IMG/VR virus record: IMGVR_UViG_3300028886_000029
Coordinates: 1 to 46,006 of that record
DNA from: a virus
Taxonomy: Duplodnaviria > Heunggongvirae > Uroviricota > Caudoviricetes
Strand: one strand, 5' to 3'
DNA length: 46,006 nt
The position numbers were made by a program, and so were the translations under genes. Position 1 is the first letter of the stretch. Every line of letters begins with the position of its first letter. Of the stretch, positions 4,087-27,380 are shown in pieces. Under the pieces are notes generated by a model. It had not been told where the DNA came from, did not search any database, and worked only from the letters and a program-made list of their open reading frames with translations.

Positions 4087-4602
4087 TTAACTGGCGTAAG
4101 TTCCAAAGTAATTTTTAATAAAAACTATTGGTGTACCTTTCTGTCCTGAACCACTAACCAAATCGCAAAGTGACGCAATCAAATCCCTATATTGCCTTGG
4201 TGTGGTACCTTGTGATGTCATGTTTCCTACCAAATTATGGTTATTGTTTTCTTTAACCTCATTCCTAATGGCATCATCAAGTTCAGTACCATGTAACTCT
4301 TTATACTTATCATCGGCAAATGCCTTAATTTTAATCTCATTAGGTGTTGACTCAAATATTTCAGGGTCAGTATAAGCTGGCATTGTAATTGGGTCAGCAA
4401 ATTCATTGATGGAAGTACCTAAAATACCATTAATCATTGGACTATGGAAACAACCATCACCATATACACAAACAAGCACATTTTTTCCTGTAACAGTTTT
4501 AACCTTGTCCTTTATATCTTCACAAACTCTAACACAGTCCCTAATGTTGGGAAACAGTTTAATCTTGTCCTCAGTTGCTTTATTAGAACCTAAAACACCG
4601 TA
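4087..4602 (-). pseudogene. C-terminal fragment of a coenzyme F420-0:L-glutamate ligase-like protein
   Basis: Open frame YGVLGSNKATEDKIKLFP...VYGDG...ADP..PAYT...NLVGNMTSQGTTPR...SLCDLVSGSGQKGTPIVFI resembles the Firmicutes/Bacteroidota F420-ligase-like family. The N-terminal half is absent, and an in-frame TAG at 4612-4614 lies within the TnpB element end. Confidence 0.7.
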
Positions 4603-4753
4603 TATAGAAATCTAAGAAAAACTATGAACAATTCTTAGTTCCCATTTCTTGTTTCAACGAAACACTGCTTTTTAGTACCTCATTGCTGAGTCTGTCATCC
4701 ACAGTTGGTTTCTCCGCAAGCGTATATTCGGGAGTACGGCTCCCTATTATTCT
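4596..4753 (-). ncRNA. Putative omega-RNA scaffold of TnpB copy 1 (overlaps the tnpB 3' end)
   Basis: Established position of TnpB omega-RNAs; hairpin gggag-ccgta-ctccc; homologous orphan copy at 7358-7505. Confidence 0.7.
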
Positions 4754-5878
4754 TTCTCCTTCCTTTAAAATGTTAATCGCAGCATTCAAATCCCTATCAT
4801 GGTGCTCTCCACATTCAGGACAATCCCACAATCGTTCGTCAAGTGTCAGTCCCTTGTAAACATAACCACAACAGTGACAAGTCTTTGAACTTGCAAACCA
4901 TCGGTCAACTTCAATCACAAACTTGTTATTCAATATTGCTTTGTTCTTTAGTGTATTTTTAAATGCATAAAAACCAACCTCTTGTATTGCTTTAGATAAC
5001 TTATGATTCTTTAGCATCCCCTGAACATTCAGGTTCTCCATGAAAACATAATCATAATTTTCCAATAATGAATTGACAACACTGTGAACATAATCAATTC
5101 TTTGATTGTTTAAACGTTCAAATTCTTTTGCAAGTTTAACTCTTGCCTTGTTTCTGTTGTTTGAGCCTTTGGCTTTCTTGGACAATTGTCTTTGTAACTT
5201 TTTGATTTTGTTTTCACTTTTTTTAAAGAAGTGTTTATTTTCAAATACTTCCCCATCAGAAGTAATTACAAAATCCTTTACACCAAGGTCAATGCCAACT
5301 CTGTTACCTGTGTGTCTGAATTGTCTGAATTCTTCTTCATTCATGGATAAAAGGACAGATAAGTAGTATTTACCACTCTTGGTTTTCGATAAGGTAGCAC
5401 ACTTTATATTGTCCTTATAGGTTTTCAATCTATTGAAATATAAGTTTGAACAACGGAACTTCAGGTTTTTCAGATTTTTAGTTAAGGAGATATGTTTAGT
5501 TTTAAAAGTATTTGTTTTAGATATTGCTTCATAAGGGAACAATGCTGAATTGTCGTTGTGTTTGGTTTTGAATTTAGGAAACCCTTTACCAAGAGTAAAG
5601 AAGCCATCATAAGCAGACAACATCTGTCTTATTGCTTGTTTCATTACCTTGGTATTTTGTTCTTTCAACCAAGAATATTGTTCGTTTTTCAGTAGTTCTC
5701 CGTGAAAGAATTTTGATAATTCGCAAAGACCAACATTAGTTTTGTCCGCATTATAAGCCTTTTGTTTATGTGCAAGCATTTGATTATAGACAAATCGGTA
5801 GCATCCAAGCACTTTGTTAAGTGTTTGTTCCTGTTCCTTATTAGGATATAACCTTATTTTAACTGTTCTTAATATCAT
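4622..5878 (-). CDS. tnpB: RNA-guided endonuclease TnpB (copy 1)
   Basis: N-terminal LRTVKIRLYPNKEQ HTH; RuvC-I VGIDLG, RuvC-II VFMENL, Zn finger CHCC..CPEC, RuvC-III HDRDLNAAINI. All three catalytic acids are present. CTATTTAT upstream at 5913-5920. Confidence 0.95.
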   Translation of the reverse strand: MILRTVKIRLYPNKEQEQTLNKVLGCYRFVYNQMLAHKQKAYNADKTNVGLCELSKFFHGELLKNEQYSWLKEQNTKVMKQAIRQMLSAYDGFFTLGKGFPKFKTKHNDNSALFPYEAISKTNTFKTKHISLTKNLKNLKFRCSNLYFNRLKTYKDNIKCATLSKTKSGKYYLSVLLSMNEEEFRQFRHTGNRVGIDLGVKDFVITSDGEVFENKHFFKKSENKIKKLQRQLSKKAKGSNNRNKARVKLAKEFERLNNQRIDYVHSVVNSLLENYDYVFMENLNVQGMLKNHKLSKAIQEVGFYAFKNTLKNKAILNNKFVIEVDRWFASSKTCHCCGYVYKGLTLDERLWDCPECGEHHDRDLNAAINILKEGERIIGSRTPEYTLAEKPTVDDRLSNEVLKSSVSLKQEMGTKNCS

Positions 5879-6045
5879 TATCAAACAATGGGGTTTATAA
5901 CCCAATCCTTTTATAAATAGTTTATGTTTTGAAAAAATCTTGATTATTAAGACTTTTTCTTAGAATTTTATTTAACTGTTAATAACCCTGTAAGAGAAAA
6001 AATTGTTTAGAAGCCCCCAGATAATAAACTATTTTTTTTTTAAAA

Positions 6046-6408: not shown

Positions 6409-6439
6409 ACTTGTCAAAGAAATGACAAGGAGGAAAAAA

Positions 6440-7216: not shown

Positions 7217-7240
7217 TGTTTGTGGTGTTTAAAAATTTAG

Positions 7241-7312
7241 AGCCTCCTGTCGGAATCGAACCAACATCTACTGATTACAAATCAGTTATAATAACCTTTA
7301 TACTAAGGAGGC
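7241..7312 (-). tRNA. trnT: tRNA-Thr(TGT)
   Basis: Cloverleaf GCCTCCT..AGGAGGC; anticodon arm actga-tttgtaa-tcagt; TTCGATT T-loop. Confidence 0.9.
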
Positions 7313-7357
7313 ATGAAGCCATGATTTATAAGGAAAACCATGGCGAAAAACCATAAC

Positions 7358-7505
7358 CACCGTATAAAGAAACTTATAAAAACCTATAAGTTTCAATTTC
7401 TTGCTTCAACCTATCACTACTTTTTAGTGCCTCATTGCTGAGTCTGTCATCCATAGTTGGATAGTCCACAAGCGTAAATTCGGAAGTACGGCTTCCTATT
7501 ATTCT
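7358..7505 (-). ncRNA. Orphan omega-RNA-like copy of the tnpB1 3' end
   Basis: Aligns by eye with 4596-4753 (shared cctcattgctgagtctgtcatcc, TATACGGTG end) with no tnpB ORF; compensatory change gggag/ctccc to ggaag/cttcc. Confidence 0.75.
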
Positions 7506-7515
7506 TACCCCTTTG

Positions 7516-7605
7516 TGGAACCCATCGTATTAGGGAGTCGAACCCTGCTACTTGCATATTCGAAAACGCGCCCAAGGGGACCTTACTAACCGTTCAGGAT
7601 GTCTC
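7516..7605 (-). other. Atypical tRNA-like element
   Basis: T-arm aggg-TTCGACT-ccct present; acceptor and anticodon arms imperfect. Confidence 0.4.
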
Positions 7606-7650
7606 TTTTGTTAATATATAAATAAATGTAAAAAAAAAAACAAACTTTTT

Positions 7651-7854
7651 TTACTTCTTTTTCTTTTTTTCGTCTTTCAATGCGGTGATAATTATCCAAT
7701 TAAACGGAACCATAACCAAACCTACAATGAAAAAAACTAAAATACCCATTGGATAACCACTGACATATATGCCACATATTCCGGCAATATCTAACAATAA
7801 GATAAACAATGCCCACAATTGTAACTTGTATTTCTCAAAAAAATTTTTAAACAT
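7651..7854 (-). CDS. Small membrane protein
   Basis: Two hydrophobic helices, basic tail. Confidence 0.7.
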   Translation of the reverse strand: MFKNFFEKYKLQLWALFILLLDIAGICGIYVSGYPMGILVFFIVGLVMVPFNWIIITALKDEKKKKK

Positions 7855-8086
7855 TTTCTTCTTTCTTTTTTCTATTATTAAAATATTTTTTTATTTTGCT
7901 AATATACCATTTAATTACAATAACATCAAAATAAATTCCGAAACCTAAGAACGCAATACTTAATGGTAATGACCAAAAAAGACTTACTTTCTCAAGTACG
8001 AATAAATTGATAATCATCATCACAACTAATACATTGAAAAGAATTAAACCTATTGTTCCTATTATTGCCAATGCTTTTTCACCCAT
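7847..8086 (-). CDS. Small membrane protein
   Basis: Two hydrophobic helices; CTATTTAT upstream at 8116-8123. Confidence 0.7.
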   Translation of the reverse strand: MGEKALAIIGTIGLILFNVLVVMMIINLFVLEKVSLFWSLPLSIAFLGFGIYFDVIVIKWYISKIKKYFNNRKKKEENV

Positions 8087-8143
8087 ATTATACTCTAATT
8101 AAACCTTATTTACTAATAAATAGTTCATTTACCTAAAAATTTG

Positions 8144-8219
8144 GGAGTTATAAGAGATTCGAACTCTTTCCTTCAGAACCACAATCTGACATGCTTCGAC
8201 CATTAACACCAATAACTCC
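8144..8219 (-). tRNA. trnH: tRNA-His(GTG)
   Basis: tcaga-ttgtggt-tctga; encoded G-1 opposite C discriminator. Confidence 0.9.
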
Positions 8220-8233
8220 ATGTTAAAAATATT

Positions 8234-8373
8234 CAGAAAACATTACCACAGTTTTAGGACTCCAACCTTATCTTCTAATTTACATTAGATGTTTTTGCAA
8301 TTAAACTATTTGTCCTGTGGATTTGAAATGGCGGACAAAATTTAAAAACATAAAAATGTTGCTGTTAGTTTTC
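8234..8373 (-). ncRNA. ACAGCAA-motif element 1, enclosing a degenerate Tyr(GTA)-like tRNA body
   Basis: gaaaac-ta-ACAGCAA ... gttttc-TG; inner tctaa-tgtaaa-ttaga arm. Confidence 0.45.
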
Positions 8374-8386
8374 TTAATTTTATTTG

Positions 8387-8459
8387 TAGGGCCAACGGTA
8401 TTCGAAACCGTGTGATAGGAATGAAAATCCTATATCCTTGACCACTAGATGATAGCCCC
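8387..8459 (-). tRNA. trnE: tRNA-Glu(TTC)
   Basis: tagga-ttttcat-tccta; full cloverleaf. Confidence 0.9.
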
Positions 8460-8876
8460 ATAAAAAAAATACCTGTTTTGTTAATTTTCTTTGTTTTTGT
8501 TCTAAGAAGTGTACCAAAAAAACTCGCCACATGCCTGTGTTTATCCCTGTACAGGTGAACATACTCTAAAACATCACTCCTTCATGGGTCGAACAATTTT
8601 CTATAAACAACTAATTGTAATTATCCTTTATCTTAACATCATGCCTTCAATTAAGAGAATAATCCTCGATTAATAGTTCAGAAGGTTAAGTTTCCCTCTA
8701 TACCTATGTTGGCTCTTTTAACTGTTCTGCAACATCACAACAATCAGTATTGGTCAAGTATCAGGATTTGCACCAACTTTTTACAACCTTATTATAATAT
8801 ACAAAAATTAACTAGTACTTTTAAAATATTATAATTAGTTCTCCACTTGACTTCGAAGCCTCACAAGTGGTATACT

Positions 8877-8953
8877 TGGTGGAATAGACAGGATTCGAAC
8901 CTGCAAAATGACACCGTGCAAGGGTGTTGCTGTACCATTGAAGCCACTACCCC
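8877..8953 (-). tRNA. trnA: tRNA-Ala(TGC), CCA encoded
   Basis: acacc-cttgcac-ggtgt; ends ACCA. Confidence 0.88.
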
Positions 8954-9019
8954 AAAAATACCGCATTTACGGCAGTGCGGCCAGCCAAAACATACGCTCT
9001 TCGAGTGATGTTAATTTTA

Positions 9020-9128
9020 CAGGAAACATTTAACGTCCATAAGACGGGACGGATTTGAACCGCAAACCTCAAATTTTTGTATCCAAGAACAAAATTCTTA
9101 ATCCATGAAAAACTTGCTGTGTGTTTCC
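9020..9128 (-). ncRNA. ACAGCAA-motif element 2, enclosing anticodon-like and T-arm-like hairpins
   Basis: ggaaac-ac-ACAGCAA ... gtttcc-TG; inner ttttgt-tcttggat-acaaaa and gcgg-ttcaaat-ccgt. Confidence 0.5.
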
Positions 9129-10063
9129 TTAATAAATTTCTTAAATTCTTCTTCAACAAACAAAGGATTATACTTACCCATATCCTTTATGATGTATGGC
9201 TTATAACCCATTTTTATTATCTCTTCAATTTTTATTGAATCTCGTTTTTGAACTTGTTCTATAGAATGCTTTTCTGTAATTTTTTCATAATGCCATTTTC
9301 CGTTCCATAAAATCGCAGTTTTTATGTCTTCAATTATTACATCAGCATCCCAACCGTTAAACATTGGAACATTGTGTTTTACATCCTTAAAATATTTTTC
9401 GCATAGTTCGCAAAAATATTTTTCGTTTTTCGAACGCCTTTTATCTGCTTGAGATTTTGCAGAGTTTTTACCCGCATTTCTTAATTTTTCAATTGTTTCT
9501 TGTGACAAAAACTCTTTTTTATGCTTTTTTATCGTTTCGCTACACTCTTTACTACATACTACTTTTGTGGTACCTGGAAACAGAGTAGAATAATAATACG
9601 TTTTTCCGCAAACTTTGCATGTTCTTTTTTTCCTTTCTCTGTGTTTAACATCTTTTTTTTCTTCAAAATTTACTTGCTTATTTAGTGATTTATAATGTTG
9701 TTTTAAAGACTGCCTTATTTTTTCCTTTGTTTCGTCACTCATTGCATCTCTCGTAACATTATTAAAAGATGCTGCACATGAGTGAGAGCAAAAAAAATGT
9801 TTTGTTTTAGAATCATTATAAACATTTTTCTTGATTTCGAACTCTTTACCGCATTTTTCACAATAAACTTTAATTCTAGTTTTTTTACTTTCATAAAAAC
9901 AATCCATTGAGCAAAACTTACATCTACCACGAAGATTGTTTAGTTCGTGTGTAATAAGATTTTTTTGTACATAAAAAGTTTTTCCGCAGTGCTCACATTT
10001 AAGTGGCAATAAATCACTTGACTTAGATGAATTGTATTCTTCTTGTGTATATAAGGTAGTCAT
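9098..10063 (-). CDS. Putative free-standing homing endonuclease (multiple CxxC motifs + C-terminal PD-(D/E)xK/Vsr-like domain)
   Basis: Repeated CxxC/CSxxC; C-terminal WDADVIIEDIKTAILWNGKWHY; CTATTTAT at 10079-10086; inside the tRNA array. Confidence 0.7.
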   Translation of the reverse strand: MTTLYTQEEYNSSKSSDLLPLKCEHCGKTFYVQKNLITHELNNLRGRCKFCSMDCFYESKKTRIKVYCEKCGKEFEIKKNVYNDSKTKHFFCSHSCAASFNNVTRDAMSDETKEKIRQSLKQHYKSLNKQVNFEEKKDVKHRERKKRTCKVCGKTYYYSTLFPGTTKVVCSKECSETIKKHKKEFLSQETIEKLRNAGKNSAKSQADKRRSKNEKYFCELCEKYFKDVKHNVPMFNGWDADVIIEDIKTAILWNGKWHYEKITEKHSIEQVQKRDSIKIEEIIKMGYKPYIIKDMGKYNPLFVEEEFKKFIKETHSKFFMD

Positions 10064-10198
10064 AAAATTGTTTTTATTATAAATAGTCTTTTGTTGCGAA
10101 AAAAAGACTTGAACCTAAAAATATTTTGTTCTTAGGTTAGTTTGTTTTAATAAACAGGATACCACCACCTACTTGCAATGTGCAATTGTTTTCGGATT

Positions 10199-10270
10199 TG
10201 AGGTGACAATCGGAATCGAACCGACATCTCAGGCTTGGAGTGCCTTGAACTAACCGTTGTGCTCCACCCC
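10199..10270 (-). tRNA. Atypical tRNA (loop actccaa; Gly-TCC or Trp-CCA reading ambiguous)
   Basis: Acceptor GGGGTGG/TCACCTC and T-arm gtcgg-ttcgatt-ccgat; no U33 in register; 2 extra nt before the acceptor 3' strand. Confidence 0.5.
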
Positions 10271-10466
10271 GCAATATTTAAAAATAAACGATTTTAGACT
10301 AGATTCGTGAACCGTTTTTATGCTGAGAGCCATAGAAAATTTGCAACTTCTCTATGTTGTTACTTGAACGTGCGAATCCACAAACACACCGCTACCCAGT
10401 TGAAACCACCTAAAAAGTGTGTACACCACTTTCATCATCAATGATTACCTTTCAAGTATCTCTTTG

Positions 10467-10541
10467 TGGGAATGAAGGAATTCGAATCCCTGACCCTTTG
10501 AATGTAAGTCAAATGCTCTAAACCAACTGAGCTACACTCCC
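10467..10541 (-). tRNA. trnV: tRNA-Val(TAC)
   Basis: tttga-cttacat-tcaaa; canonical D arm. Confidence 0.92.
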
Positions 10542-10818
10542 AAAAATACGCCCATTTATTCCTCCATGTTGTCACAGTATGTTGTGAGGGACTTTTCACT
10601 ATATTAGCCCAATGCGACCTCTTTACGCTACTTCCGCACCTATATTTGGAATTAATGTTGCTTACCTACGCATACCCATCGCAAATTTTAACCACACCCC
10701 AGCCAAATACATTGCTCCAATCTATATTCTTCTTCTAATGTGGTTGACAGGAATAACCCAACAGGACTTCTTTCTATTGAAAATTCAAATTCTGCATACC
10801 TTAATGATAGAAAAATAA

Positions 10819-10877
10819 CAGGAAACATTTTTGTTTGAAAATGACAATTTCAATAAAATAATTTGCTGTATGTTTCC
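10819..10877 (-). ncRNA. ACAGCAA-motif element 3 with an Asp(GTC)-like anticodon stem-loop
   Basis: ggaaac-at-ACAGCAA ... gtttcc-TG; inner ttgaaa-TTGTCAT-tttcaa. Confidence 0.55.
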
Positions 10878-11285
10878 TAAAAAAATATCTAAAAAACTAC
10901 TTGATAGTACAAAAAAGATATTAACGGTTTAGCCACAACCATTTTTGTTTTGGCCAGTCCTCTACCTAACCGTGTAGGTTTTCCTTTCAACATCAAGAAT
11001 GGCTCATTCTATAGTGTGTTGGCTAAGGAAATATGCTAATCCCCAACAACTTCATTTTTCAAAAAACGGATGCATGTCAATCGTATTCCGTTATTCTGCG
11101 TTAACCTCACATGCCAAGGTCATATAGTCCACAACACACCCATATGACTAACTAGTATTTTCATTCTAAAAATTACTTAATAGAATATGAGCAGCCATTA
11201 TTATAATGGAACCAATAAAACAACTATTGAATTTCTGCTATTGTTTAGTTTCTAATTTTTCAACATTGTCAAATAACTTACATTG

Positions 11286-11293
11286 CAAATATA
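11286..11293 (-). promoter_or_regulatory. Bacteroidota sigma70-type -7 element (TATATTTG)
   Basis: Matches the TAnnTTTG consensus; also at 14672-14679, 17051-17058, 26026-26033 and 45549-45556. Confidence 0.65.
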
Positions 11294-11324
11294 TAAATAT
11301 TAATTGACAAAAACAAATTTTTTG

Positions 11325-11951
11325 TACTTCGGCTGCGACTCGAACGCAGGACCAACTGCTTAGCTTACCACTATAACTTTCGTTACCAATATAAGACTAA
11401 AAATGACCTACAGCACAAGAGGATTGCAGTCATTCCGTAACATCCCTTTTATGTTCCTCTTATTTCGGGTCTTTATATTGTTTGTGGTCTGGACTATCCC
11501 TTAACCATATTGAAATCTTGCAAGATTGGATTAGGGTTTGTTCTTACCCCGAATAGCAGGTCGCTTTCCTGCACAGTTTGTTTTAATTTTAAAATCCAAA
11601 TTTCAACTTAGGTTTCTTCCGTCTAGTCTCTACACACTGTCTATTACAAATACTGAAATGTAGCTTAATTGCATATATTTGCCTTCTATGCAATAACGCC
11701 TTTTCATTACATTCCCAATTAACACCTTTTGCAAACGAGGTGAGTATTTGTTTTTAACATTGGTTCGGTATTAGCATATATTAACAGGACTCTTCACCTG
11801 TCCGACTCATATAGAGTGTCTGATTTGATTTTATACTTAGCTTTCACCGAATTTGGAAGTTTCTACATCTAAAATTTCTTTTAGTGCACTCCTAATTAAT
11901 TGATTATCAATTACTTAAAGGCAGTTGCTCTATCCACTGAGCTACCGAAGC
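11325..11951 (-). tRNA. trnR: tRNA-Arg(TCT) split by a group I intron (exons 11951-11918 and 11363-11325)
   Basis: Spliced arm actgc-ctt|ctaa-gcagt; acceptor GCTTCGG/CCGAAGT. Confidence 0.85.
11364..11917 (-). ncRNA. Group I intron (554 nt) after U34 of tRNA-Arg
   Basis: P/Q/R/S-like cores aattcggtgaaag, aataccgaaccaa, gtagagactag, aagggatagtcc; U.G in P1; ends ...GTGGTAAG. Confidence 0.85.
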
Positions 11952-11974
11952 ATAAATAATATTTTTAAAAATTG

Positions 11975-12059
11975 TGCGTCCAATGGGACTCGAACCCATA
12001 ACGCCTTACGGACCCCTCTGATTAAAAGTCAGATGCGCTACCAATTGCGCCATGGACGC
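11975..12059 (-). tRNA. trnK: tRNA-Lys(TTT) with long variable arm
   Basis: tctga-cttttaa-tcaga; 85 nt in total. Confidence 0.85.
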
Positions 12060-12067
12060 TTACACAG

Positions 12068-12895
12068 TTAAATTATTCCATAATCAATAAGCCATCTTTT
12101 CACTGTTGTTGGGCTTACGGAATATTTTCTCGCAAGTCCTGCAAATGTTTTTATTTCTAAGAAATCATTTGCTAATGTTTCTTTTTCTGGTTTGTGTTTT
12201 ACGGTATCAAGTCTTTCTCTGTAACATGTAAGACAATAACCATGAACTGTCCTATATGCTAGTGGTTTACCACAACCTTTACAACAAGTTATTTCCTTAT
12301 TTGTTGCTATGTTTTTTCCACAAAAATTATCGGTCTGAGAATGACAGTTTGGACAGAGTATTTGTATATTGTCAATTGCATTATTTTGTTTATTTCCGTC
12401 AATATGATGCAATTGTAAAACAATTTTTTCACCCATCCACTCCGTAATACCACACCTTTCACATTTTCGCTCTTTTATCCCTTCCCTAAAAAGCCTCTCT
12501 TTAAATGTATAAAGATTTTGTTTATATCCGGAACCGTTCCTTTTTCTATTTGTTAGAGTATTAGTTCTTAGTTTCAAAGATATCTTTTCTTTTGTTTCGG
12601 TACTTAAGACTCTATTTTTATTATTAAAAGAAGCAGCACAAGACGATGAACAAAACTTTTTTTGCCCAGAGATTAATTCCTTACCACATTTAACACAATA
12701 ACGTTTTTTCTTTTCTTTATACCAACCAAAATCAAAACCAATTTCTTCTGCTACCTTATTGATATATCTTATATTTGCAGTATTGCTACAAACACCATAA
12801 TATTCATAAATTTCTTTTTTGGTAGAAAATGACTTGAATAGTTCATATACTTTATGTTTTTTATCATCATTACTTATATCTATAAACATAACCAT
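12068..12895 (-). CDS. HNH homing endonuclease
   Basis: CERC..QLHHIDGNKQNNAIDNIQILCPNCH; ATG at 12895 (the longer ORF-track frame overlaps tRNAs). Confidence 0.88.
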   Translation of the reverse strand: MVMFIDISNDDKKHKVYELFKSFSTKKEIYEYYGVCSNTANIRYINKVAEEIGFDFGWYKEKKKRYCVKCGKELISGQKKFCSSSCAASFNNKNRVLSTETKEKISLKLRTNTLTNRKRNGSGYKQNLYTFKERLFREGIKERKCERCGITEWMGEKIVLQLHHIDGNKQNNAIDNIQILCPNCHSQTDNFCGKNIATNKEITCCKGCGKPLAYRTVHGYCLTCYRERLDTVKHKPEKETLANDFLEIKTFAGLARKYSVSPTTVKRWLIDYGII

Positions 12896-12989
12896 TTTTT
12901 TATATAAATATACAGAAAAATGTGAAAAAATCAAGTTTTGAACTATAAGTTGTTCAAAAAAAAGAAAAATCACCATGCTCCAATATGAG

Positions 12990-13064
12990 CAGTCATAACG
13001 GGGTTCGAACCCGTAAATCTCCACCGTGACAGGGTGGCATGTTAACCAATTACACCATATGACT
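12990..13064 (-). tRNA. trnD: tRNA-Asp(GTC)
   Basis: ccacc-ctgtcac-ggtgg. Confidence 0.9.
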
Positions 13065-13074
13065 ATAAATTTTG

Positions 13075-13147
13075 TCGGGATGATACGACTCGAACGTACG
13101 ACCCCTTGGTCCCAAACCAAGTGTTCTACCAACTGAACTACATCCCG
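13075..13147 (-). tRNA. trnP: tRNA-Pro(TGG)
   Basis: cttgg-tttggga-ccaag; CGGGATG acceptor. Confidence 0.92.
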
Positions 13148-13152
13148 AAAAA

Positions 13153-13325
13153 TAATTAGTTTCTGTTCCATCTCTGCCAATGAATTCAACAAGAAGCCTA
13201 TGGAGTGGCGTTTTATTAGCGCGCCTTTCGATTATTACCACTCAGCAAGTGTAATGTGATTTTTTCCGGATAACCCATTACTCTAATGCCAACTATCACC
13301 CATCACTGGGATGTGAAACTAATTA
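13153..13325 (-). ncRNA. Candidate ~170-nt structured RNA
   Basis: 11-bp terminal helix taattagtttc/gaaactaatta continued by catc/gatg and ccagtga/tcattgg; internal gagtgg/ccactc. Confidence 0.45.
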
Positions 13326-13348
13326 ATTTATAAGTTTTTATCATAAAA

Positions 13349-13385
13349 TTTGCTACATTTTCAAAGGGTTTGAAAATGTAGCAAA
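13349..13385. terminator. 17-bp perfect hairpin (terminator or processing site)
   Basis: tttgctacattttcaaa-ggg-tttgaaaatgtagcaaa. Confidence 0.65.
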
Positions 13386-13400
13386 ATATGTGATAATTTG

Positions 13401-13527
13401 TCGGAAACCAAGGATTTGCACCTTGAACTGTGACACCCAATAATTTTATAACAGAATGTTGCTGTACATTTTTTTTCCAAAAAACGCAAATAAAAAAGTC
13501 ACCGTGTTACTGTTACACTAATTTCCG
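13401..13527 (-). tRNA. trnP: Second tRNA-Pro(TGG) interrupted by a 56-nt insert in the anticodon loop
   Basis: CGGAAAT/GTTTCCG acceptor; gtgac-ttt[56 nt]gggt-gtcac; T-loop tgcaaat. Confidence 0.7.
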
Positions 13528-13592
13528 AATTTTTTTCCGCGGTGAGACTGAGATTCGAACTCAGGGGTCGCTCATCACGACCGGCGGTTTTC

Positions 13593-14314
13593 CTTACCAC
13601 TATAGCTTTCGCTACCAAAACAAGAAACACAATTTATTCGAATGTCCCCACTTAACTGAGGCATAGTATTATCTAACTACGAAAACGTCTCTACAATTAT
13701 ACTCTACGCCAACCTGCATACTCACGATATATCGCTTTCATGTTCTCCGTAGTGTTTCCCCAACGTTTTGTGAGTGTTTGTTTTGTTTGTGGTCTGGACT
13801 CTATCTTAACCTTATTGAAACCTTGCAAGATGTATAAGTTTACCTCAGCACCTTCAAGCTTCGTATAAACGCATCGTGTCAATTCACTTCTTTAATTCTA
13901 GTTCCACTTATACAATTTCAACTTAGGTTCCTCCCATATCGTCTCTACACACTGTCTAAGGCACTGTAGGCTTTACTACACTTATTTTAAAACAACGGCA
14001 ATCTGTTGTTACCTTAACATTGGCTCGGTATTACCATCAGCATTATCTGTTAAGGTTTCACCGAATTAGGGAGGTTCTACATCTAAAATTTCTTTTAGCG
14101 CACTCAAATTACACATTGTTCAAGAGTATGAAATAAAATAGTAAATTATTTCTTTATAGTTAAAACTAATGGGTTAACTCCTAAACCCTCTATCCCATTC
14201 GCAAATGCGTTTGGGACTGCTTTTTTTCATAATATTATAACTGCCATTAACATCAGCGTTAACATATTTGTATTGTTATATATAAATAGTATGAAAAAAA
14301 TTGAAAATATTTTC
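13593..14314 (-). ncRNA. Group I intron (722 nt) after U34 of tRNA-Ser with enlarged P1 loop
   Basis: Same core motifs as the Arg intron; P1 cttgaa/tttgag closes about 200 nt downstream; ends ...GTGGTAAG. Confidence 0.85.
14146..14270 (-). pseudogene. tnpB: tnpB C-terminal remnant (omega-RNA-overlapping region) inside the intron P1 loop
   Basis: KYVNADVNGSYNIMKK[+1 A]AVPNAFANGIEGLGVNPLVLTIKK*, a RuvC-III NADVNG-type TnpB tail; CTATTTAT at 14282-14289. Confidence 0.75.
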
Positions 14315-14475
14315 AAGACCGCTGCATTAGACCACTCTGCCACCTCACCGTAAAATAAAGATTATTCTGAACTCTGTCACCATTAACGATTATTAAGAAA
14401 AGTCTTAATAATATTGTTAAACATCTATTCAATGCTACTGTCAGTTTTTTCTTTATTAAGAAAGTCACCATAGTA

Positions 14476-14582
14476 TGCTGAGAGTCGGATTCGAACCGAC
14501 AGTCATTATCAAAGGATAATGCAGGTTACTCGCCTGAACTGGGTATTACCCCTACGAGTCTTCCAATTCGCACCACCTCAGC
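14476..14582 (-). other. Atypical class II tRNA-like element with an extra hairpin
   Basis: GCTGAGG/TCTCAGC acceptor, canonical T-arm, long variable arm, extra gggt-aat-accc hairpin, non-canonical loop cgagtaa. Confidence 0.5.
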
Positions 14583-14714
14583 CTTCGTGACCATATTTTA
14601 TTTTCAATTTCACATATTCAATAAAATAATTTGTATTTATCAGTATTGTCAAAGAAATATTAATTTCATTGCAAATGTATAAATCTTTTTTTTTACAACA
14701 AAATTAATTTTTAG

Positions 14715-15341
14715 TTGAAGGCAGAGGAATCGAACCTCTATTCTGGGAACCCATACCACTATAGCTTTCACTACCAACTAGCATTCAATTGCAGGATGAT
14801 ATTTACCCACCTCTCATGGTTGGTGAAGGAACATATTGCTATATATTTATCCCGTTTACTGCAATTTACATTGTTTGTGGTCTGGACTATACCTTAACCA
14901 TATTGAAATCTTGCGCAAGTAGGAAGCATCAGTCTCTAAGTACTTTCTTATAAACTCAATCCTTATTGAAATAATATATATTCTTACGGATGTGGAATAT
15001 TACTCTTCTTCCATTTCAACTTAGGTTTTCTCCATCTAGTCTCTACACACTGTCTAAGTTTTACATGCTCCGTTTGCTACACCTTGCACAAAGAATTACA
15101 CTTTGTCCATATGTGGGAACTCGAATCCCCTGCAAAACTATAACATTGGCTCGGTATTAGCATATATCTCATCTGTTATATCCTCTCGGATAATCTCGTG
15201 ATTTACAATGCCCTCTCGGACAAACACACTCTTATATGATTACTTAGCCTTCACCGAATTTGGAGAATTCTACATACAAAATTTCTTTTGAAGCATTCGA
15301 TTTTTTCAAAATCCCATGTCTTACCTTTAGACGAGCCTTCA
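14715..15341 (-). tRNA. trnQ: tRNA-Gln(TTG) split by a group I intron (exons 15341-15308 and 14751-14715)
   Basis: Spliced tggga-tttt|ggt-tccca; TGAAGGC/GCCTTCA acceptor. Confidence 0.82.
14752..15307 (-). ncRNA. Group I intron (556 nt) after U35 of tRNA-Gln
   Basis: Same core motifs; P1 tttga/tcgaa with U35.G; ends ...GTGGTATG. Confidence 0.82.
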
Positions 15342-15413
15342 ATTTATTTCAAAGAACTGTTTCTTTTTATTTCAAAAATCGTGCCAAAATATAAATTTTA
15401 ACATTTTTTTTTG

Positions 15414-15485
15414 CGGGGACGCATGGATTCGAACCAAGATAGACGGATTAACAGTCCGCAGTAATAACCCTTATACGACATCCCC
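15414..15485 (-). tRNA. trnN: tRNA-Asn(GTT)
   Basis: gcgga-ctgttaa-tccgt. Confidence 0.9.
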
Positions 15486-15494
15486 AATTATAAA

Positions 15495-15731
15495 CTACTT
15501 TTCAGTAGTTTCAGTTGTTGCATCATTTACCACATCTTCGTTTTTTGGCATTGTGGCTGCTGTTGTAGGTGCGACAGAGTTCATTTTCTCATATTCCGCT
15601 CTCAACTTTTCAAGCCTCTTTTGTCTTGCCAACATAAGTCTCTTTTTCTCAATAAGACTGTTTCTAACATTTTCATTAGCGTCCCTTCTTGGGGTAAATG
15701 AATTTTTCTTTGTGTGTTTCTTTTTACTCAT
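15495..15731 (-). CDS. Small basic/coiled-coil hypothetical protein
   Basis: 78 aa ORF between tRNAs. Confidence 0.65.
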   Translation of the reverse strand: MSKKKHTKKNSFTPRRDANENVRNSLIEKKRLMLARQKRLEKLRAEYEKMNSVAPTTAATMPKNEDVVNDATTETTEK

Positions 15732-15758
15732 AACAATAAAATTAAAAAATAAAATTTG

Positions 15759-15832
15759 TACCCTCTCTCAGATTCGAACTGAGACTTCATAGATTTTGAA
15801 TCTATTCACTCTGCCAATTGGTGTAAGAGGGT
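15759..15832 (-). tRNA. trnL: tRNA-Leu(CAA) with short variable loop
   Basis: ataga-ttcaaaa-tctat; 74 nt. Confidence 0.8.
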
Positions 15833-15834
15833 AT

Positions 15835-16026
15835 ATTATATTGAGTTACTGGTCAGAAATTACCTACAGTTGAATATGACACCCATCGCCTTGGATAATA
15901 TTGTTGTTTGCGCAAATTCTTTCAATATTATCTGTACACCTATTGAATCCTGATGTATTTTCCTTTTCCCTGTAGCGTACTTCAGAAAATACCGATTCCA
16001 TTCCATATCTCCTCACTCAATATAAT
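15835..16026 (-). ncRNA. Candidate ~190-nt structured RNA
   Basis: 12-bp terminal helix attatattgagt/actcaatataat; boxA-like GTTCTTTGAA just upstream; no ORF. Confidence 0.4.
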
Positions 16027-16097
16027 TTTTCAAAGAACTATTATGTGTTTTACAAATATCATGCCAAAGGCATTAAAAAGACAAACAAATTTTAATA

Positions 16098-16775
16098 TTA
16101 TTTAACATTTTTGCCGTACAATTGACCTCTTTTAAAATATTTTGATTTACCTGTGCGAGTTGGTTCAAGACTTTCTGTTATAATTTTGTCTATATCAATA
16201 GTATCTTCTCTCAAAGCCAAATCATCATATATTTTCTTTACTTGTTCAAAAAAAGGTATTCTAAATTTAAAATGCTTGGATATTTGTGTATAGTAGTTGT
16301 CATCATCGGTAGCATCTACAATTTCATGCTCTTCATGTTGAAGTTTTAACTGTGAGTGCTTGTCATCACCTTCCCAATATTGGTATGAAACTTCTCCATC
16401 GTTTTGCATATCAACAAATATCACACTTTCTTGGTTATATTTGTAACATAGATAAAGTGTATCTTCAATAGTGATATTATATACCATTATAGAATTCTCA
16501 ATACCATCATAGTTACCTTTTACTTTAAAATATTTATAATGTCCAATACTAAGTTGTCTTTCTAATTCATTACTTGCTTGCTGATTATATTCTTTTTCAG
16601 CCTTATTACCCATAGGATTTTCTGCTGAAATAATAGCCATTGTTCTAACCCTACGATTAGTTCCTTGTATTGCTTGTTGTGCTTTTTGTCTGCGTGATGT
16701 TTCCATCATAACATTTTTAACACTTTTCTCTATTATATTTTTTAAATCAGTTTCAGTAAGAACTATTTCAGTCAT
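16098..16775 (-). CDS. Phage protein (DUF3293-like core), paralog of 6440-7216
   Basis: AIISAENP..VKGNYDGIENSIMVYNI..KYNQESVIF. Confidence 0.78.
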   Translation of the reverse strand: MTEIVLTETDLKNIIEKSVKNVMMETSRRQKAQQAIQGTNRRVRTMAIISAENPMGNKAEKEYNQQASNELERQLSIGHYKYFKVKGNYDGIENSIMVYNITIEDTLYLCYKYNQESVIFVDMQNDGEVSYQYWEGDDKHSQLKLQHEEHEIVDATDDDNYYTQISKHFKFRIPFFEQVKKIYDDLALREDTIDIDKIITESLEPTRTGKSKYFKRGQLYGKNVK

Positions 16776-16790
16776 AATTTCTTTTTTTTG

Positions 16791-16875
16791 TGGGAGTGGT
16801 TAGATTCGAACTAACTGTGTGTCATTGTGCTGGATTTACAGTCCAGTGCCCATCCACCATCTGAGCCGCACTCCC
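16791..16875 (-). tRNA. trnY: tRNA-Tyr(GTA)
   Basis: ctgga-ctgtaaa-tccag; long variable arm. Confidence 0.9.
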
Positions 16876-16956
16876 GTAATTAAATTCTTTTTGAATTTAG
16901 AAGTCAACGTATCTCATCTTCCTACGGTTTAAAAATCCGAAAAACATACGTGGTTG

Positions 16957-17039
16957 TGGGCACTGAGAGACTTGAACTCTCACGTCATTAAGACACATGC
17001 TCCTTAGGCATGCCTGTCTACCAATTCCAGCAAGCACCC
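16957..17039 (-). tRNA. trnL: tRNA-Leu(AAG)
   Basis: catgc-ctAAGga-gcatg; class II Leu body. Confidence 0.88.
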
Positions 17040-17249
17040 AAATTGTGTTGCAAATATATTACTATTTTTTTAAAAACCCAAATTTTTATGTACAAAAATA
17101 ATATTTTTCACATCAAAATCATCTGTGTAATTCAACACTTCTTTCAAAAATGTTTCCATTGTATAACCACTATGGTTTTTAAATTCTTCTTCCAACTGTT
17201 TATGATTTTCCAAAATATTATCCATAATCATTAAATTTTATGTTTTTTG

Positions 17250-17323
17250 TGGGCAAGGTAGAACTCGAATCTACGGTCTCTTGAATATCAGTCAAGTGCT
17301 TTAACCAACTAAGCTACTCGCCC
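17250..17323 (-). tRNA. trnI: tRNA-Ile(GAT)
   Basis: cttga-ctgatat-tcaag. Confidence 0.92.
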
Positions 17324-17336
17324 TTATTTTATTTTG

Positions 17337-17419
17337 TGGGCACTGAGAGACTTGAACTCTCACATCACGAAGGATACATGCTCCTAAGGCATGCGTGTCT
17401 ACCGTTCCACCAAGTACCC
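17337..17419 (-). tRNA. trnL: tRNA-Leu(TAG)
   Basis: catgc-ctTAGga-gcatg; paralog of 16957-17039. Confidence 0.92.
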
Positions 17420-17425
17420 ATTTTG

Positions 17426-17499
17426 AGTTTCAGGTGAGATTCGAACTCACGGATGTCAGTTTTGCAGACTGATGTGTTAAACCACTTCACCACTGAAAC
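17426..17499 (-). tRNA. trnC: tRNA-Cys(GCA)
   Basis: tcagt-ctgcaaa-actga. Confidence 0.92.
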
Positions 17500-17507
17500 A
17501 AATTTTG

Positions 17508-17582
17508 CAGAAGCGGAAAGATTCGAACTCTCATCAGGCAACTTTGGAGGATGCTATGCTTAACCATTTACACCACGCTTCC
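17508..17582 (-). tRNA. trnW: tRNA-Trp(CCA)
   Basis: gcatc-ctccaaa-gttgc; GGAAGCG/CGCTTCT acceptor. Confidence 0.85.
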
Positions 17583-18970: not shown

Positions 18971-18971
18971 A

Positions 18972-19182: not shown

Positions 19183-19183
19183 A

Positions 19184-20326
19184 TTAAAAGATGTTTTTTA
19201 CTATATTATTCCATTTGTTTCTCTTCATAGCAGAAACAGCCTTCTTTTCCGCATTCCAAAACTCACTATAAGATGAATATTTTTTTGCAATTTTTAAAAC
19301 TTCATCAAGTGTCCATCTATGTCTCAATTCTATGAAATATTTTTCCGAAAATTCTTTCATATATCCATTTTTTAAAACCCATTGATATGCTGAAGCATTT
19401 TTTTGTTCAAATTCTTTCTTTGTTTTACATGTTTTTGCAATAATTTCACAATCTTCTAAATTCCACATTTTTTTTGCTTCTCGTTTTGTTTTTTCTTCAC
19501 CAACATAAGAAAAACCATAAATTTGTTCTCTACATCTATAACAAACTGTAAGATAATTTATACCGGTCTTTTTTGAACATTCCATTGCTGACTCATAAAC
19601 AATTCCGTTGTATCGAACCTTTTTAGCATCAGCGGGAATTTTACCTTTCATTTGTTCTGAAAGTTTTTTCTTAGTTTCTTCAGTATGATGTTTTCCATAA
19701 AAAGAATTTTTTTCACCAGTTCTTTTTGAAAAAGACACTGATAATTTTTGTTTTATTTCTGCTGCTCGTTCTATTCCATACACTTCTTCAAATGTTTTTC
19801 CTTTTATGTAATTATCATGTGTTTTAAAATATTCCTTCTTTTCTTTAGATGCCTTTTCCCGTTGTTCTTTAGTCCATTTATTGCCAAAATTTGGGTTTCC
19901 CTTTCCTCTCAATTTTTCAGAATACACTTGTTTTTCCTCATCAGTTTTTGAGTCCCATCTATTTTTAGTTGCAATTCTTTGTTTCTCTTTTATTTTATTT
20001 AAAAAAGGATGATATGAAACAATATCCCCACCACTTCCGTTCTTTGAAACATTATACAATTTTCCACTATTCCAACAAAAATTAATGTATCTTTCTTCTA
20101 ATGCCCTAAGTTCTTCTTCTGATGAGAATTCTCTTGCTTTAATTATCACAAAGTCAAAATTTTCACCGCCATATTTATTGTATGCTCTCTGTAAATAAAC
20201 TGAATGATGTTTATTAGACTTTAGTTCGTTAAAATGTCTTTCTTTTCTTACTTTGGGGTTTAATGTGGACCCGATGTAAAACTTGTTTGTTTTATTATTT
20301 ATAATTTTATAAATGTATCCTATCAT
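19184..20326 (-). CDS. GIY-YIG homing endonuclease with NUMOD3-type repeats
   Basis: GYIYKIIN..FYIGST, LYN..GGD, NPNFG, NSFYGKHHTEETKKKLSE; CTATTTAT at 20348-20355. Confidence 0.92.
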   Translation of the reverse strand: MIGYIYKIINNKTNKFYIGSTLNPKVRKERHFNELKSNKHHSVYLQRAYNKYGGENFDFVIIKAREFSSEEELRALEERYINFCWNSGKLYNVSKNGSGGDIVSYHPFLNKIKEKQRIATKNRWDSKTDEEKQVYSEKLRGKGNPNFGNKWTKEQREKASKEKKEYFKTHDNYIKGKTFEEVYGIERAAEIKQKLSVSFSKRTGEKNSFYGKHHTEETKKKLSEQMKGKIPADAKKVRYNGIVYESAMECSKKTGINYLTVCYRCREQIYGFSYVGEEKTKREAKKMWNLEDCEIIAKTCKTKKEFEQKNASAYQWVLKNGYMKEFSEKYFIELRHRWTLDEVLKIAKKYSSYSEFWNAEKKAVSAMKRNKWNNIVKNIF

Positions 20327-20395
20327 AACTAAAAATCTCTTATACTAATAAATAGCATAAAAGATTAAAAAGTAAAGCGAAAAACAAATTATTTT

Positions 20396-21955: not shown

Positions 21956-21958
21956 TGT

Positions 21959-22660: not shown

Positions 22661-22713
22661 AATATTTTAATTTTTAACAAATATATAAAAAGTTATTTTA
22701 AAAAGCAAAAATA

Positions 22714-23655: not shown

Positions 23656-23695
23656 AAATCACTCAATTATTTTAACAAATCTTTCACTACTATTA

Positions 23696-24912: not shown

Positions 24913-24918
24913 TATTTT

Positions 24919-25944
24919 TTAGACTAACAACTCAATCTCATTGAATTGTTTTTTATTTTTAAAAATTTTTATCATATTCTGTTTTCCACCCTGCTCATAT
25001 GCCTCACCAAAATCTTTCCAAGGTAGTGTGTCACTACCCAATTCAACATACCAAATTTTATTTCTTAATCTTCCTATGTTAAGTAAACTATACATTCTTT
25101 TGATTTCAGTCTTATCAACATCACCATCAAGACAAATAATCACATTCGCGTTGGCTTTGTTATATAAGTTTTTATATAGTTCACTGTCTTTGGTTAATGA
25201 TTTACCTAATAAAGACACTGTGTTTCCGTTACCGTAAATACAATCAATCGCACCTTCACAAAGCCATATGTCCGCACACCATTTTATTTTTTCCTCTTGA
25301 AAGATTATTTTTTTCTTGTCAACATCACAATTTTTGTATTTTGTTTTTTTGGGATTACCTGAAAAATCTCTTCCAACCCAATAATTCAAATCACCGTTAC
25401 AATCATAAGAAGGAATTATTATTCTATCTCTGTCTTGCCATTTCTCCTCATCCCAAGTGGTATAACCGATGTTGTAAAAGTCAATTATATCTTGCGTGAT
25501 GTTTCTTTTTTTGAGATATTCAACTAGTTTGTTTTTTCTACATTTCTCTAAATTAATTTTTGTATATGTTGGTGGTAATGTTAGGTTGTTTGTAGTACCA
25601 AATAAAGTATTTTCGTTATCTTTGAACAAATCAAGGTCATAATATTTGTTTTCTTTAAGGTCTTTAATAACAGAGAAATAGTCTGATAACATTTCACTGC
25701 TACCCCATCTCTTGATTAACCTTGATATCGTTCCACCATGATTACAACACCATGTGTGAAATTTTCCCAAAGACAAAGAAACCTCCAAATTGTATTTCAT
25801 GTCAGGTGTGCCGCCGTTTTCCACTGTCTCCCAAGGACAGTTAAACTGATATTGAGTCTCATTAGTGCTGAATCCACCTTGTTTGGATTCACCCAATATT
25901 GAGACTAATATGTTGTACACCTGCCTGACTTCTATTGGTAACAT
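24919..25944 (-). CDS. dnaG: DNA primase (DnaG/gp61-like, TOPRIM)
   Basis: Degenerate Zn ribbon, YLKKRNI, KYKN, LCEGAIDC, ICLDGD, KDFGE. Confidence 0.85.
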   Translation of the reverse strand: MLPIEVRQVYNILVSILGESKQGGFSTNETQYQFNCPWETVENGGTPDMKYNLEVSLSLGKFHTWCCNHGGTISRLIKRWGSSEMLSDYFSVIKDLKENKYYDLDLFKDNENTLFGTTNNLTLPPTYTKINLEKCRKNKLVEYLKKRNITQDIIDFYNIGYTTWDEEKWQDRDRIIIPSYDCNGDLNYWVGRDFSGNPKKTKYKNCDVDKKKIIFQEEKIKWCADIWLCEGAIDCIYGNGNTVSLLGKSLTKDSELYKNLYNKANANVIICLDGDVDKTEIKRMYSLLNIGRLRNKIWYVELGSDTLPWKDFGEAYEQGGKQNMIKIFKNKKQFNEIELLV

Positions 25945-26004
25945 ATCTTTTTTTTACAAAAATACAAATAAATAATGGGAACGATATACATGTTGGCTAA
26001 GGTG

Positions 26005-27302
26005 TTCCCTTTAACTCAGCCACTGCAAATATATAAATTTTTTAAATAAAAACAAACTTTTTCACTTTTATTAACTATTTATATATGTAATGATTAAAGC
26101 ATACAAATATAAAATCCTACCATCAGAAGAACAAAAACAACTTTTAAATAAGTTCTTCGGATGTGCAAGGTATATCTATAATTGGGGGCTTAAAATAAAA
26201 ACACAAACATATAAAGAATATGGTAAATCCATATCATATAATGATTTAGCAAAACAATTAACTGTATTAAAACAACAAAACGAAACCTCATTTCTTTGTG
26301 AATGTGCTAACGAATCACTACAACAATCACTAAGAAACCTTGAAAATGCATTTACTGGGTTTTTCCGTAAAAAATCAAATTACCCAAATTTCAAATCCAA
26401 GAAAAAATCAAGAGAATCGGCTAAGTTCATTAACTGTGCCCATTTTGATTTTGAAAATTGGAAAGTAAAAATTCCAAAAATGGGATGGATTAAACTTTGC
26501 AAAAACCGTACATGGAATCAAGATACATCTAAACAAGGCACGGTAACAGTTTCAAAGGATAAATGTGGTACTTATTGGGTATCAGTTGTTGTTGATAATC
26601 AACAATCAAACAATGATAAAAAAACAATTATAACAGAAACCACTGTTGGTATTGACCTTGGAATTAAGGATTATGCCATTTTATCTGATGGTACAAAATA
26701 TAGCAACCCAAAACACCTTGATAAATCACAAAAAATGCTTGCTCATTGGCAAAAGACATTTGCGAGAACCAAGCAAGGTTCAAATCGCCATGAAAAAGCA
26801 AGATTACAAGTCGCAAAGTGTTATAGGAGCATAACCAATCAACGTAATGATTTCATTCACAAATTATCCACTGATTTAGTTAGGAAGCATGACACGATTT
26901 GTCTTGAAGATTTAAATGTAAAAGGAATAGAACAGAATCATCATCTCGCAAAAGCAATAAGTGATGCCGCTTGGGGTGAATTTGTCAGACAACTCACATA
27001 TAAATCTGAATGGTACGGTAAAAACATTGTGTTCATAGGTAGGTATGAACCAAGCAGTAAATTATGTCATTGTTGCGGATATGTTAACAGGGAATTAAAA
27101 TTATCTGATAGACAATGGGCGTGTCCTGTATGTGGTGAACACCATGACAGGGATGTTAATGCGGCTATTAATGTAAAAAGGATTGCATTAGAAAAACAAA
27201 ACCTTATAGGTTTATAGAAATAAAAGACAGCCGAGGGAACGACTGCATGGCGTGGAGGGAAGAGGTTACGAACCCTGTGAATCGCTGAGATATAAAGTGG
27301 TG
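26005..27302 (+). mobile_element. Non-autonomous TnpB-only element 2
   Basis: Bounded by a duplicated GGTG; structured GC-rich 3' tail 27218-27302; no tnpA. Confidence 0.65.
26090..27217 (+). CDS. tnpB: RNA-guided endonuclease TnpB (copy 2)
   Basis: KAYKYKILP, VGIDLG, ICLEDL, CHCC..CPVC, HDRDVNAAIN; CTATTTAT at 26075-26082. Confidence 0.95.
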   Translation: MIKAYKYKILPSEEQKQLLNKFFGCARYIYNWGLKIKTQTYKEYGKSISYNDLAKQLTVLKQQNETSFLCECANESLQQSLRNLENAFTGFFRKKSNYPNFKSKKKSRESAKFINCAHFDFENWKVKIPKMGWIKLCKNRTWNQDTSKQGTVTVSKDKCGTYWVSVVVDNQQSNNDKKTIITETTVGIDLGIKDYAILSDGTKYSNPKHLDKSQKMLAHWQKTFARTKQGSNRHEKARLQVAKCYRSITNQRNDFIHKLSTDLVRKHDTICLEDLNVKGIEQNHHLAKAISDAAWGEFVRQLTYKSEWYGKNIVFIGRYEPSSKLCHCCGYVNRELKLSDRQWACPVCGEHHDRDVNAAINVKRIALEKQNLIGL

Positions 27303-27380
27303 TTAGCCAACAAGTATATCATTCCCTAAATAATATAAAAAACAAAAGTCATGGAAAAAACCATGTCAAATTGACATGGT

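Follow-up and report, generated by a model that had tools for sequence, protein, structure and literature searches.

The tRNA-rich interval of a jumbo-phage genome, bounded by two genes for the RNA-guided nuclease TnpB, is probably a gathering of several independent selfish elements, drawn from three TnpB lineages and including non-autonomous derivatives served in trans, and not one system. The window, meaning the whole stretch of DNA analysed here, comprises bases 1–46006 of a 363,317-bp IMG/VR phage record rated complete. A sequence-only reading of it had proposed a dispersed multi-guide system, in which two TnpBs would be supplied by orphan guide-RNA cassettes embedded in the tRNA array. 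Judged by their sequences, the two window TnpBs (TnpB1 and TnpB2) and the cassette at 14 kb are three unrelated TnpB lineages, and each guide is simply the sequence next to the inserted element, which is so for every TnpB transposon, with no chosen target set; the proposal of a single multi-guide system is therefore not upheld. The narrower idea that guides are kept apart from the nuclease holds in that both cassettes retain a guide-RNA right end and carry no nuclease gene, so that any activity of theirs would need a TnpB made elsewhere in the genome.

Six tnpB genes are present genome-wide, all encoding the TnpB Pfam domains (HTH_OrfB, OrfB_IS605 and the zinc-ribbon TNB) and the RuvC D/E/D residues. 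Both window TnpBs align lengthwise with ISDra2 TnpB structures (E values of 6e-51 for TnpB1 and 2e-83 for TnpB2), and their RuvC motifs GIDLG, ENLN/EDLN and HDRD are intact, in agreement with the catalytic residues first read from the translations. The reported absence of TnpA is correct for the window, within which no tnpA of any kind is found, and incorrect for the genome, where two serine-recombinase tnpA genes, at ~200–203 kb and 348–350 kb, each abut a tnpB and so define two IS607-type elements. Y1 (HUH) TnpA has no match in the whole 363-kb genome when searched with PF01797, which detected it in control genomes, and no autonomous IS200/IS605 element is thus recognized. The description as transposase-less applies to the TnpB1 and TnpB2 lineages and not to the genome.

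A motif upstream of both TnpBs and of the 14-kb cassette had been taken as a further bond between them. The motif is indeed present (ACTATTTAYA; CTATTTAT), with 38 occurrences genome-wide that mostly lie 15–40 nucleotides (nt) 5′ of the start codons of unrelated genes; as a TnpB-specific signal it was rejected. Examples are found at window positions 5912, 10078, 14281, 26074, 34426 and 37718, usually with a run of T ~10–12 nt upstream. By this distribution it is a general phage promoter motif, and the TnpB elements would thus use the phage's own transcription signals.

TnpB1 belongs to a family with 52 relatives in viral contigs, often several per phage. Aligning the right ends of its members (n = 28) yields a ~153-nt RNA; 28 pairs are predicted in it, compensatory changes occur at 17 of them, and this structured guide RNA (omega-RNA) overlaps the tnpB 3′ end and finishes at the element boundary. 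The DNA of the guide-RNA region is 82–88% identical between elements whose proteins are ~65% identical; Rfam holds no match for the guide RNAs. In 38 distinct copies the family terminates in T(A/G)TACGGT, the next base varies and the sequence beyond is unrelated. The ending GGTG ascribed earlier to the elements was rejected as a terminus on these grounds, as it consists of the terminal GGT plus one base of flank. Alignment of 31 regions upstream of tnpB genes defined no conserved left end, and consequently gave no logo for the transposon-associated motif (TAM). A covariance model of the family guide RNA (R1), run on 35 phage records, has two matches in this genome, the TnpB1 RNA and the cassette at 7.4 kb.

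The insertion sites of both can be read in the closest relative, L016, a single 94.5-kb contig that is 96% identical in the flanks. Searches with one flanking protein and with DNA patterns (two against viral contigs, one against metagenome contigs) identified no other close relatives, only unrelated chance matches. The TnpB1 element occupies the place of 1772 nt kept in L016, which comprise most of an F420-ligase-like gene, a SprT-like gene and tRNA-Ser(gct) and lie between two similar GGGT|GTTTT sites. The flank serving as TnpB1 guide is found in L016 at 31/31 nt, directly after GGGGT, inside the F420-ligase-like gene; the left flank of TnpB1 ends in AGGGT. At the empty site of the 7.4-kb cassette, L016 reads AAAGGGGT, again with GGGGT upstream, followed by the cassette's guide sequence with one mismatch. 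From these junctions the TAM is probably GGGT or GRGT, 5′ of the target; the GGTG-like TAM predicted earlier is contradicted by the GGGGT upstream of both targets and was likewise rejected. Both guides match TAM-flanked sites in the nearest rival genome, which fits the prediction of the homing model (PMC10055086; PMC13565253) and the role against competing phages that the sequence-only reading had suggested. An inverted repeat flanking TnpB1 (25 of 32 positions matching) was judged to be due to chance (E value of 0.8).

The cassette at 7.4 kb is a real detached tnpB 3′ end, with boundaries slightly refined (Table 1). Window positions 7349–7513 are 78% identical to the TnpB1 3′ end over 175 nt, and the cassette scores 143 bits on R1 with every helix kept. 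It is closer to elements of other phages (86–88% identity) than to TnpB1, and one helix is wholly swapped relative to TnpB1 through paired compensatory changes, which together indicate derivation from a different member of the TnpB1 family. Exactly 148 nt are missing in L016 at a clean empty site with both flanks 96% identical. The conserved stretch upstream of the cassette, itself directly preceded by a promoter-like AT-rich motif, terminates in the GGGGT that precedes the insertion point. The cassette begins directly with the scaffold and does not have the left-end and right-end hairpins around a short core that characterize PATE-like elements.

The cassette's putative guide has a perfect 17-nt match elsewhere in the same genome, at 241355–241371 (L110:2856–2872), where ~4e-5 such matches are expected by chance. 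This site lies in the 3′ untranslated region of a PhoH-like gene, between the gene and its terminator hairpin, and may represent either a target in trans or a 3′ end shared by common ancestry.

At least four other jumbo phages also have guide-RNA-only copies of the TnpB1 family in their tRNA arrays. R1 identifies eight scaffold-only copies, none with tnpB coding sequence upstream, at six independent loci in six phage records. Seven of them (five loci) lie within a tRNA array or next to one, on the tRNA strand, and the start of every copy is within ~10 nt of the first scaffold hairpin. Three decaying copies in which 71–190 codons remain lie outside tRNA arrays. The statement that the cassettes are embedded in the tRNA array is sound, as both window cassettes lie inside it, on the tRNA strand. 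Full-length TnpB1-family loci also lie in tRNA arrays in 9 of 38 cases, always on the tRNA strand, the 38 including some from the same or closely related arrays; for comparison, a tRNA is no more than 700 nt away from only ~3% of the bases of the present genome. An orphan suspected in L045 was rejected, being the guide RNA of a tandem upstream tnpB.

Segments of tRNA genes stand in the guide position in six distinct copies. In L030, L034, L073 and L098 the right end is followed by a decayed T-arm, and the tRNA ahead of the element is intact and has a different T-arm. This arrangement suggests that the element inserts where the variable loop meets the T-arm and that the donor brings a substitute T-arm. 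The guides of L073 and L098 match the functional tRNA-Lys T-arm of the other phage at 19/20 and 17/20 positions, versus 16/20 and 15/20 for their own. These two are related phages that carry the same orphan scaffold and swapped T-arm types.

Such recurrence raises the question of domestication, whereby guide-RNA genes placed purposely in the tRNA operon would arm one or two TnpBs against several targets in rivals, in the host or among the genes of the phage itself; the guides would be freed by tRNA processing or by intron splicing. The uniform 5′ edges and array positions of the scaffold-only copies, the position of the three decaying copies outside arrays, R1 scores of several scaffold-only copies as high as those of nuclease-linked copies, the better fit of the L073 and L098 guides to the other phage's tRNA and the 17-nt match at 241 kb all speak for it. 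We nevertheless regard it as unlikely: no guide is more than the sequence beside its own element, each lineage has a single cassette with no array of them, and tandem repeat-spacer units of the CRISPR-like or TranC-like kind are lacking, as the scaffolds are single-copy. Full-length elements favour tRNA arrays in the same way, and the absence of both cassettes from the closest relative marks them as recent and dispensable. In L079 the scaffold ends so close to the following tRNA that 5′ processing of that tRNA by RNase P would remove the guide, and the 241-kb match is preceded by GGTTAT, not by GGGT. The idea of guides acting in trans survives in a narrower form, as scaffold-only cassettes that an unlinked TnpB would serve and that are enriched in tRNA arrays.

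A further reading, which we put forward tentatively and regard as less likely than not, is that the orphan cassettes are selected and recurrent residents of jumbo-phage tRNA operons. They would be expressed with the tRNAs, and a single unlinked TnpB would use them to cut the tRNA regions of rivals, often at T-arms or 5′ ends by way of a GGGT-type TAM in the variable loop, the donor's substitute T-arm keeping its own tRNA both working and immune. On the same tentative footing, this would be an RNA-guided counterpart of the marker exclusion of T4 SegB type, with the guide apart from the nuclease.

The second cassette, at 14 kb, has a different origin. Its right end (window 14122–14276) is 98% identical to the tnpB 3′ end at genome 348271–348423 and comprises the last ~40 codons (~130 nt) of that tnpB plus 24 nt beyond. 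Positions 14261–14313 are an IS607 left end, 90% identical to 350079–350129, the region upstream of the source tnpA, so that the CTATTTAT motif in the cassette is simply the tnpA promoter. The two parts meet at an 8-nt microhomology (junction ACAAATAT). The cassette had been described as a detached tnpB 3′ end, which is accurate for this right part and overlooks the left; with both IS607 ends retained, the interior deleted and a discrete insertion site, it is a miniature IS607 derivative. In L016 the 5′ exon of the tRNA-Ser runs directly into the intron, and the 193-nt insert is absent from a clean empty site. The only TnpB that matches the cassette is encoded 334 kb distant, beside its transposase. 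The earlier reading had itself named a tnpA elsewhere, with many scattered MITE copies, as showing ordinary transposition debris and so refuting it; for this cassette the objection applies, as a tnpA exists elsewhere in the genome and the cassette looks like the product of ordinary transposition.

The miniature is inserted exactly at the 5′ splice site of the putative group I intron in tRNA-Ser(UGA). Both junctions, which read TCTT|GAA(A/C)A, carry a copy of CTTGAA, the sequence that forms the 5′ strand of the P1 helix. This likeness (TCTT|GAA) fits insertion by a serine recombinase into a site like the element's own joined ends. Of the two CTTGAA copies, the one at the miniature's end is adjacent to the internal guide sequence of the intron and may be a competitor of the true splice site. 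We rejected an IStron as an explanation of this arrangement, because the order of parts is reversed, the intron carries no insertion-sequence (IS) fragment in L016 and no intron-like sequence adjoins the source IS.

Both cassettes could instead be inert, that is, dead fragments of former elements or accidental recombination copies with neither an RNA nor a nuclease function today. In favour are the frameshifted coding remnant and simple microhomology deletion of the miniature, the nature of the tRNA array as a dumping ground, which holds three introns, an HNH open reading frame (ORF) and a GIY-YIG ORF, and the low R1 scores of some orphan scaffolds elsewhere (64–115 bits). This is the least probable of the explanations considered here. 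The 148-nt cassette has all helices and a score close to that of the nuclease-linked copy (152 bits), its limits are exactly those of the functional RNA, the miniature is too similar to its intact, transposase-linked source to have had time to decay, and the genome holds a matching intact TnpB for each cassette.

TnpB2 differs from TnpB1 in its ends. Its conserved sequence continues 24–28 nt past GGTG, into a 24-bp terminal inverted repeat, so that GGTG does not close this element either. The last 22 nt of the right end are 100% identical to those of a paralogue at 85 kb (genome 84883–84904), the genes being only 67% identical, and the relative L081 has matching repeats. Terminal inverted repeats are unexpected for IS605-type elements. 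The homology of relatives around TnpB2 ends at ~25970 and 27391; they hold other genes at that position, and no clean empty site was found among them.

Table 1 Coordinates of TnpB elements, guide-RNA cassettes and associated tRNA genes (positions are those of the window unless a record is named).
Feature	Position	Strand	Description
C-terminal remnant of F420-ligase-like gene	4087..4479	-	Truncated at TnpB1 right end; identified through Pfam match of the L016 ORF
Flank serving as TnpB1 guide	4577..4596	-	Identical sequence in L016 within F420-ligase-like gene
TnpB1 element	4597..5984	-	tnpB without tnpA; boundaries by comparison with L016
TnpB1 guide-RNA (omega-RNA) scaffold	4597-4754	-	Terminus TATACGGT; R1 score 152 bits
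tnpB1 ORF	4622-5878	-	Three Pfam TnpB domains
tRNA-Thr(UGU)	7240..7312	-	Next gene downstream of 7.4-kb cassette
Spacer, cassette to tRNA-Thr	7313..7358	-	46 nt; first ~20 nt = putative guide
TnpB1-family guide-RNA-only cassette, 148 nt	7359..7506	-	Scaffold only; no coding remnant, no left end
Conserved tRNA-like, T-arm-bearing stretch upstream of cassette	7507..7626	-	94% identical in L016; no tRNA called
tRNA-Arg(UCU)	11324..11951	-	554-nt paralogous putative group I intron; also in L016
tRNA-Ser(UGA)	13539..14349	-	722-nt intervening sequence = ~529-nt putative group I intron + 193-nt miniature at 5′ splice site
Miniature IS607 derivative, 193 nt	14122..14314	-	Left end with phage promoter motif + right end
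tRNA-Gln(UUG)	14714..15341	-	556-nt paralogous putative group I intron; L016 tRNA intronless
TnpB2 element	25977..27330	+	tnpB 26090-27217, three Pfam TnpB domains
TnpB2 terminal inverted repeats, 24 bp	25977-26000 and 27303-27326		22/24 matches
Regions with scaffold-only copies, L073 and L098	L073:1420-1700, L098:1920-2200		Syntenic; 7 nt after tRNA-Lys
Scaffold-only copy, L079			Ends 2 nt before tRNA-Gly
Scaffold-only copy, L100			33 nt after tRNA-Leu
Scaffold-only copies, L101			Two copies beside six-tRNA array
Scaffold-only copy, L104			No tRNA nearby

The array in which the two cassettes lie consists of nineteen tRNA genes on the minus strand (7240–17582), sixteen called directly and three by ARAGORN only with introns allowed. 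The three intervening sequences are paralogous, their group I core elements are readable, and all three have U as the last base of the upstream exon and G as the last of the intron. The match to the Rfam group I model RF00028 is weak (16.8 bits, E value of 0.09 in a 641-nt search, below the gathering score) and covers P and Q of the tRNA-Arg intron; over 24 kb the same model gave no match at E ≤ 1.

Several other observations concern this array. In L016 the 3′ exon that follows the tRNA-Ser 5′ exon and intron belongs to a different tRNA, and the counterpart of window positions ~12000–13590 is missing. An HNH-domain ORF (12068–13192, minus strand) has a listed start that overlaps tRNA-Asp and tRNA-Pro, so that its true start is probably further downstream; together with a GIY-YIG/NUMOD3 endonuclease ORF (19184–20326, minus strand) it represents further homing-type elements in or beside the array. 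With introns allowed, ARAGORN also reports two tRNAs that contain inserts, one of 56 nt in a tRNA-Pro (13400–13527) and one of 18 nt in a tRNA-Thr(agt) (14476–14582); these may be false calls or decayed tRNAs.

The mechanism that we propose for the independent elements builds on their identities and boundaries, the empty sites in L016, the RNA covariation and the recurrence across phages; its steps of transcription, TnpB loading in trans, TAM recognition, cleavage and homing are inferred. RNA-guided homing is the most likely means by which the TnpB1 element, of a family common in jumbo phages, persists and spreads. In a co-infected cell TnpB1, carrying a guide copied from the flank of its element, would cut the matching, GGGT-TAM-bearing site in a related phage that does not have the element, and recombinational repair would then copy the element into the cut phage. 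The 148-nt cassette would be a non-autonomous derivative of another family member, transcribed with the tRNA operon and active only through TnpB1 in trans. The 193-nt cassette would be a deletion miniature of the IS607 element at 348–350 kb, probably moved in trans by the recombinase of its source to a site that resembles the element's end junction and happens to be the 5′ splice site of a putative group I intron. Arrays of tRNA genes would collect such elements since insertions there are tolerated and tRNA sequences are conserved across divergent phages, providing both guide targets and homology arms.

Some features sit uneasily with this account of independent elements. TnpB1 is a replacement of the 1772 nt of L016 and not a simple insertion, its family has no definable conserved left end, and the TAM is deduced from a handful of junctions. 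The 7.4-kb cassette likewise lacks a left end and begins where its scaffold begins, which is not what random internal deletion predicts. Because L016 is the only close relative in the collections searched, the 148-nt difference could in principle be a deletion in L016. Given 78% scaffold identity and one swapped helix, loading of the cassette RNA by TnpB1 is a tentative proposal.

Among known systems, the IS200/IS605 TnpB homing nucleases (ISDra2; Geobacillus ISGst; Karvelis 2021, Meers 2023) resemble the elements described here in protein family, RuvC residues, an omega-RNA overlapping the tnpB 3′ end, a guide taken from the right flank and a TAM upstream of the empty-site target. The present elements differ in the absence of a Y1 TnpA and of a conserved family left end, in their jumbo-phage hosts, in a GGGT-like TAM where theirs is TTGAT and in the likely recipient, a co-infecting phage and not a sister chromosome. 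According to PMC10055086, TnpB functions as a homing nuclease, and the guide RNAs encoded by elements devoid of an ORF are served in trans; PMC13565253 counts homing into co-infecting phages among its categories. Like the PATE-like, ORF-less IS200/IS605 derivatives (PMC10055086), the 148-nt cassette is non-autonomous and keeps a guide RNA, with its TnpB elsewhere; unlike them it has no recognizable left end, which makes transposase-driven mobility unlikely, and lies inside a phage tRNA operon.

The 14-kb cassette resembles IS607 elements and their miniatures, in that a resolvase-type TnpA adjoins TnpB in the source and the cassette has both ends with the interior deleted, and is distinguished by residing in a phage genome, at the 5′ splice site of a putative group I intron in a tRNA gene. 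IStrons (PMC4227781, PMC10690162) combine a TnpB-type guide-RNA region and a group I ribozyme in one intervening sequence, as the tRNA-Ser gene probably does, and with such sharing splicing and guide-RNA formation may come into conflict. Theirs is one mobile unit with the ribozyme 5′ and the IS 3′, whereas in the present gene it is the 5′ splice site that holds the IS fragment, and the intron is separable. T4 SegB-type free-standing homing endonucleases (cited in PMC13565253) are alike in that the nuclease would favour inheritance of the donor's tRNA region in mixed infections, with the differences that recognition here would be RNA-guided and that the nuclease gene of the cassettes is unlinked.

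Evidence for the natural role of TnpB, from which Cas12 descends, has come mainly from bacterial chromosomes. The present genome offers a testable phage case, as the guide-matching sequence and TAM are intact in the nearest rival genome, and the IS607 miniature at an intron splice site is a natural experiment in the conflict between splicing and guide-RNA formation. If the proposed mechanism is true, RNA-guided homing operates between co-infecting phages, the clustering of mobile elements in phage tRNA regions would be explained, and guide and nuclease would be naturally unlinked, a step towards the trans guides of CRISPR-like systems.

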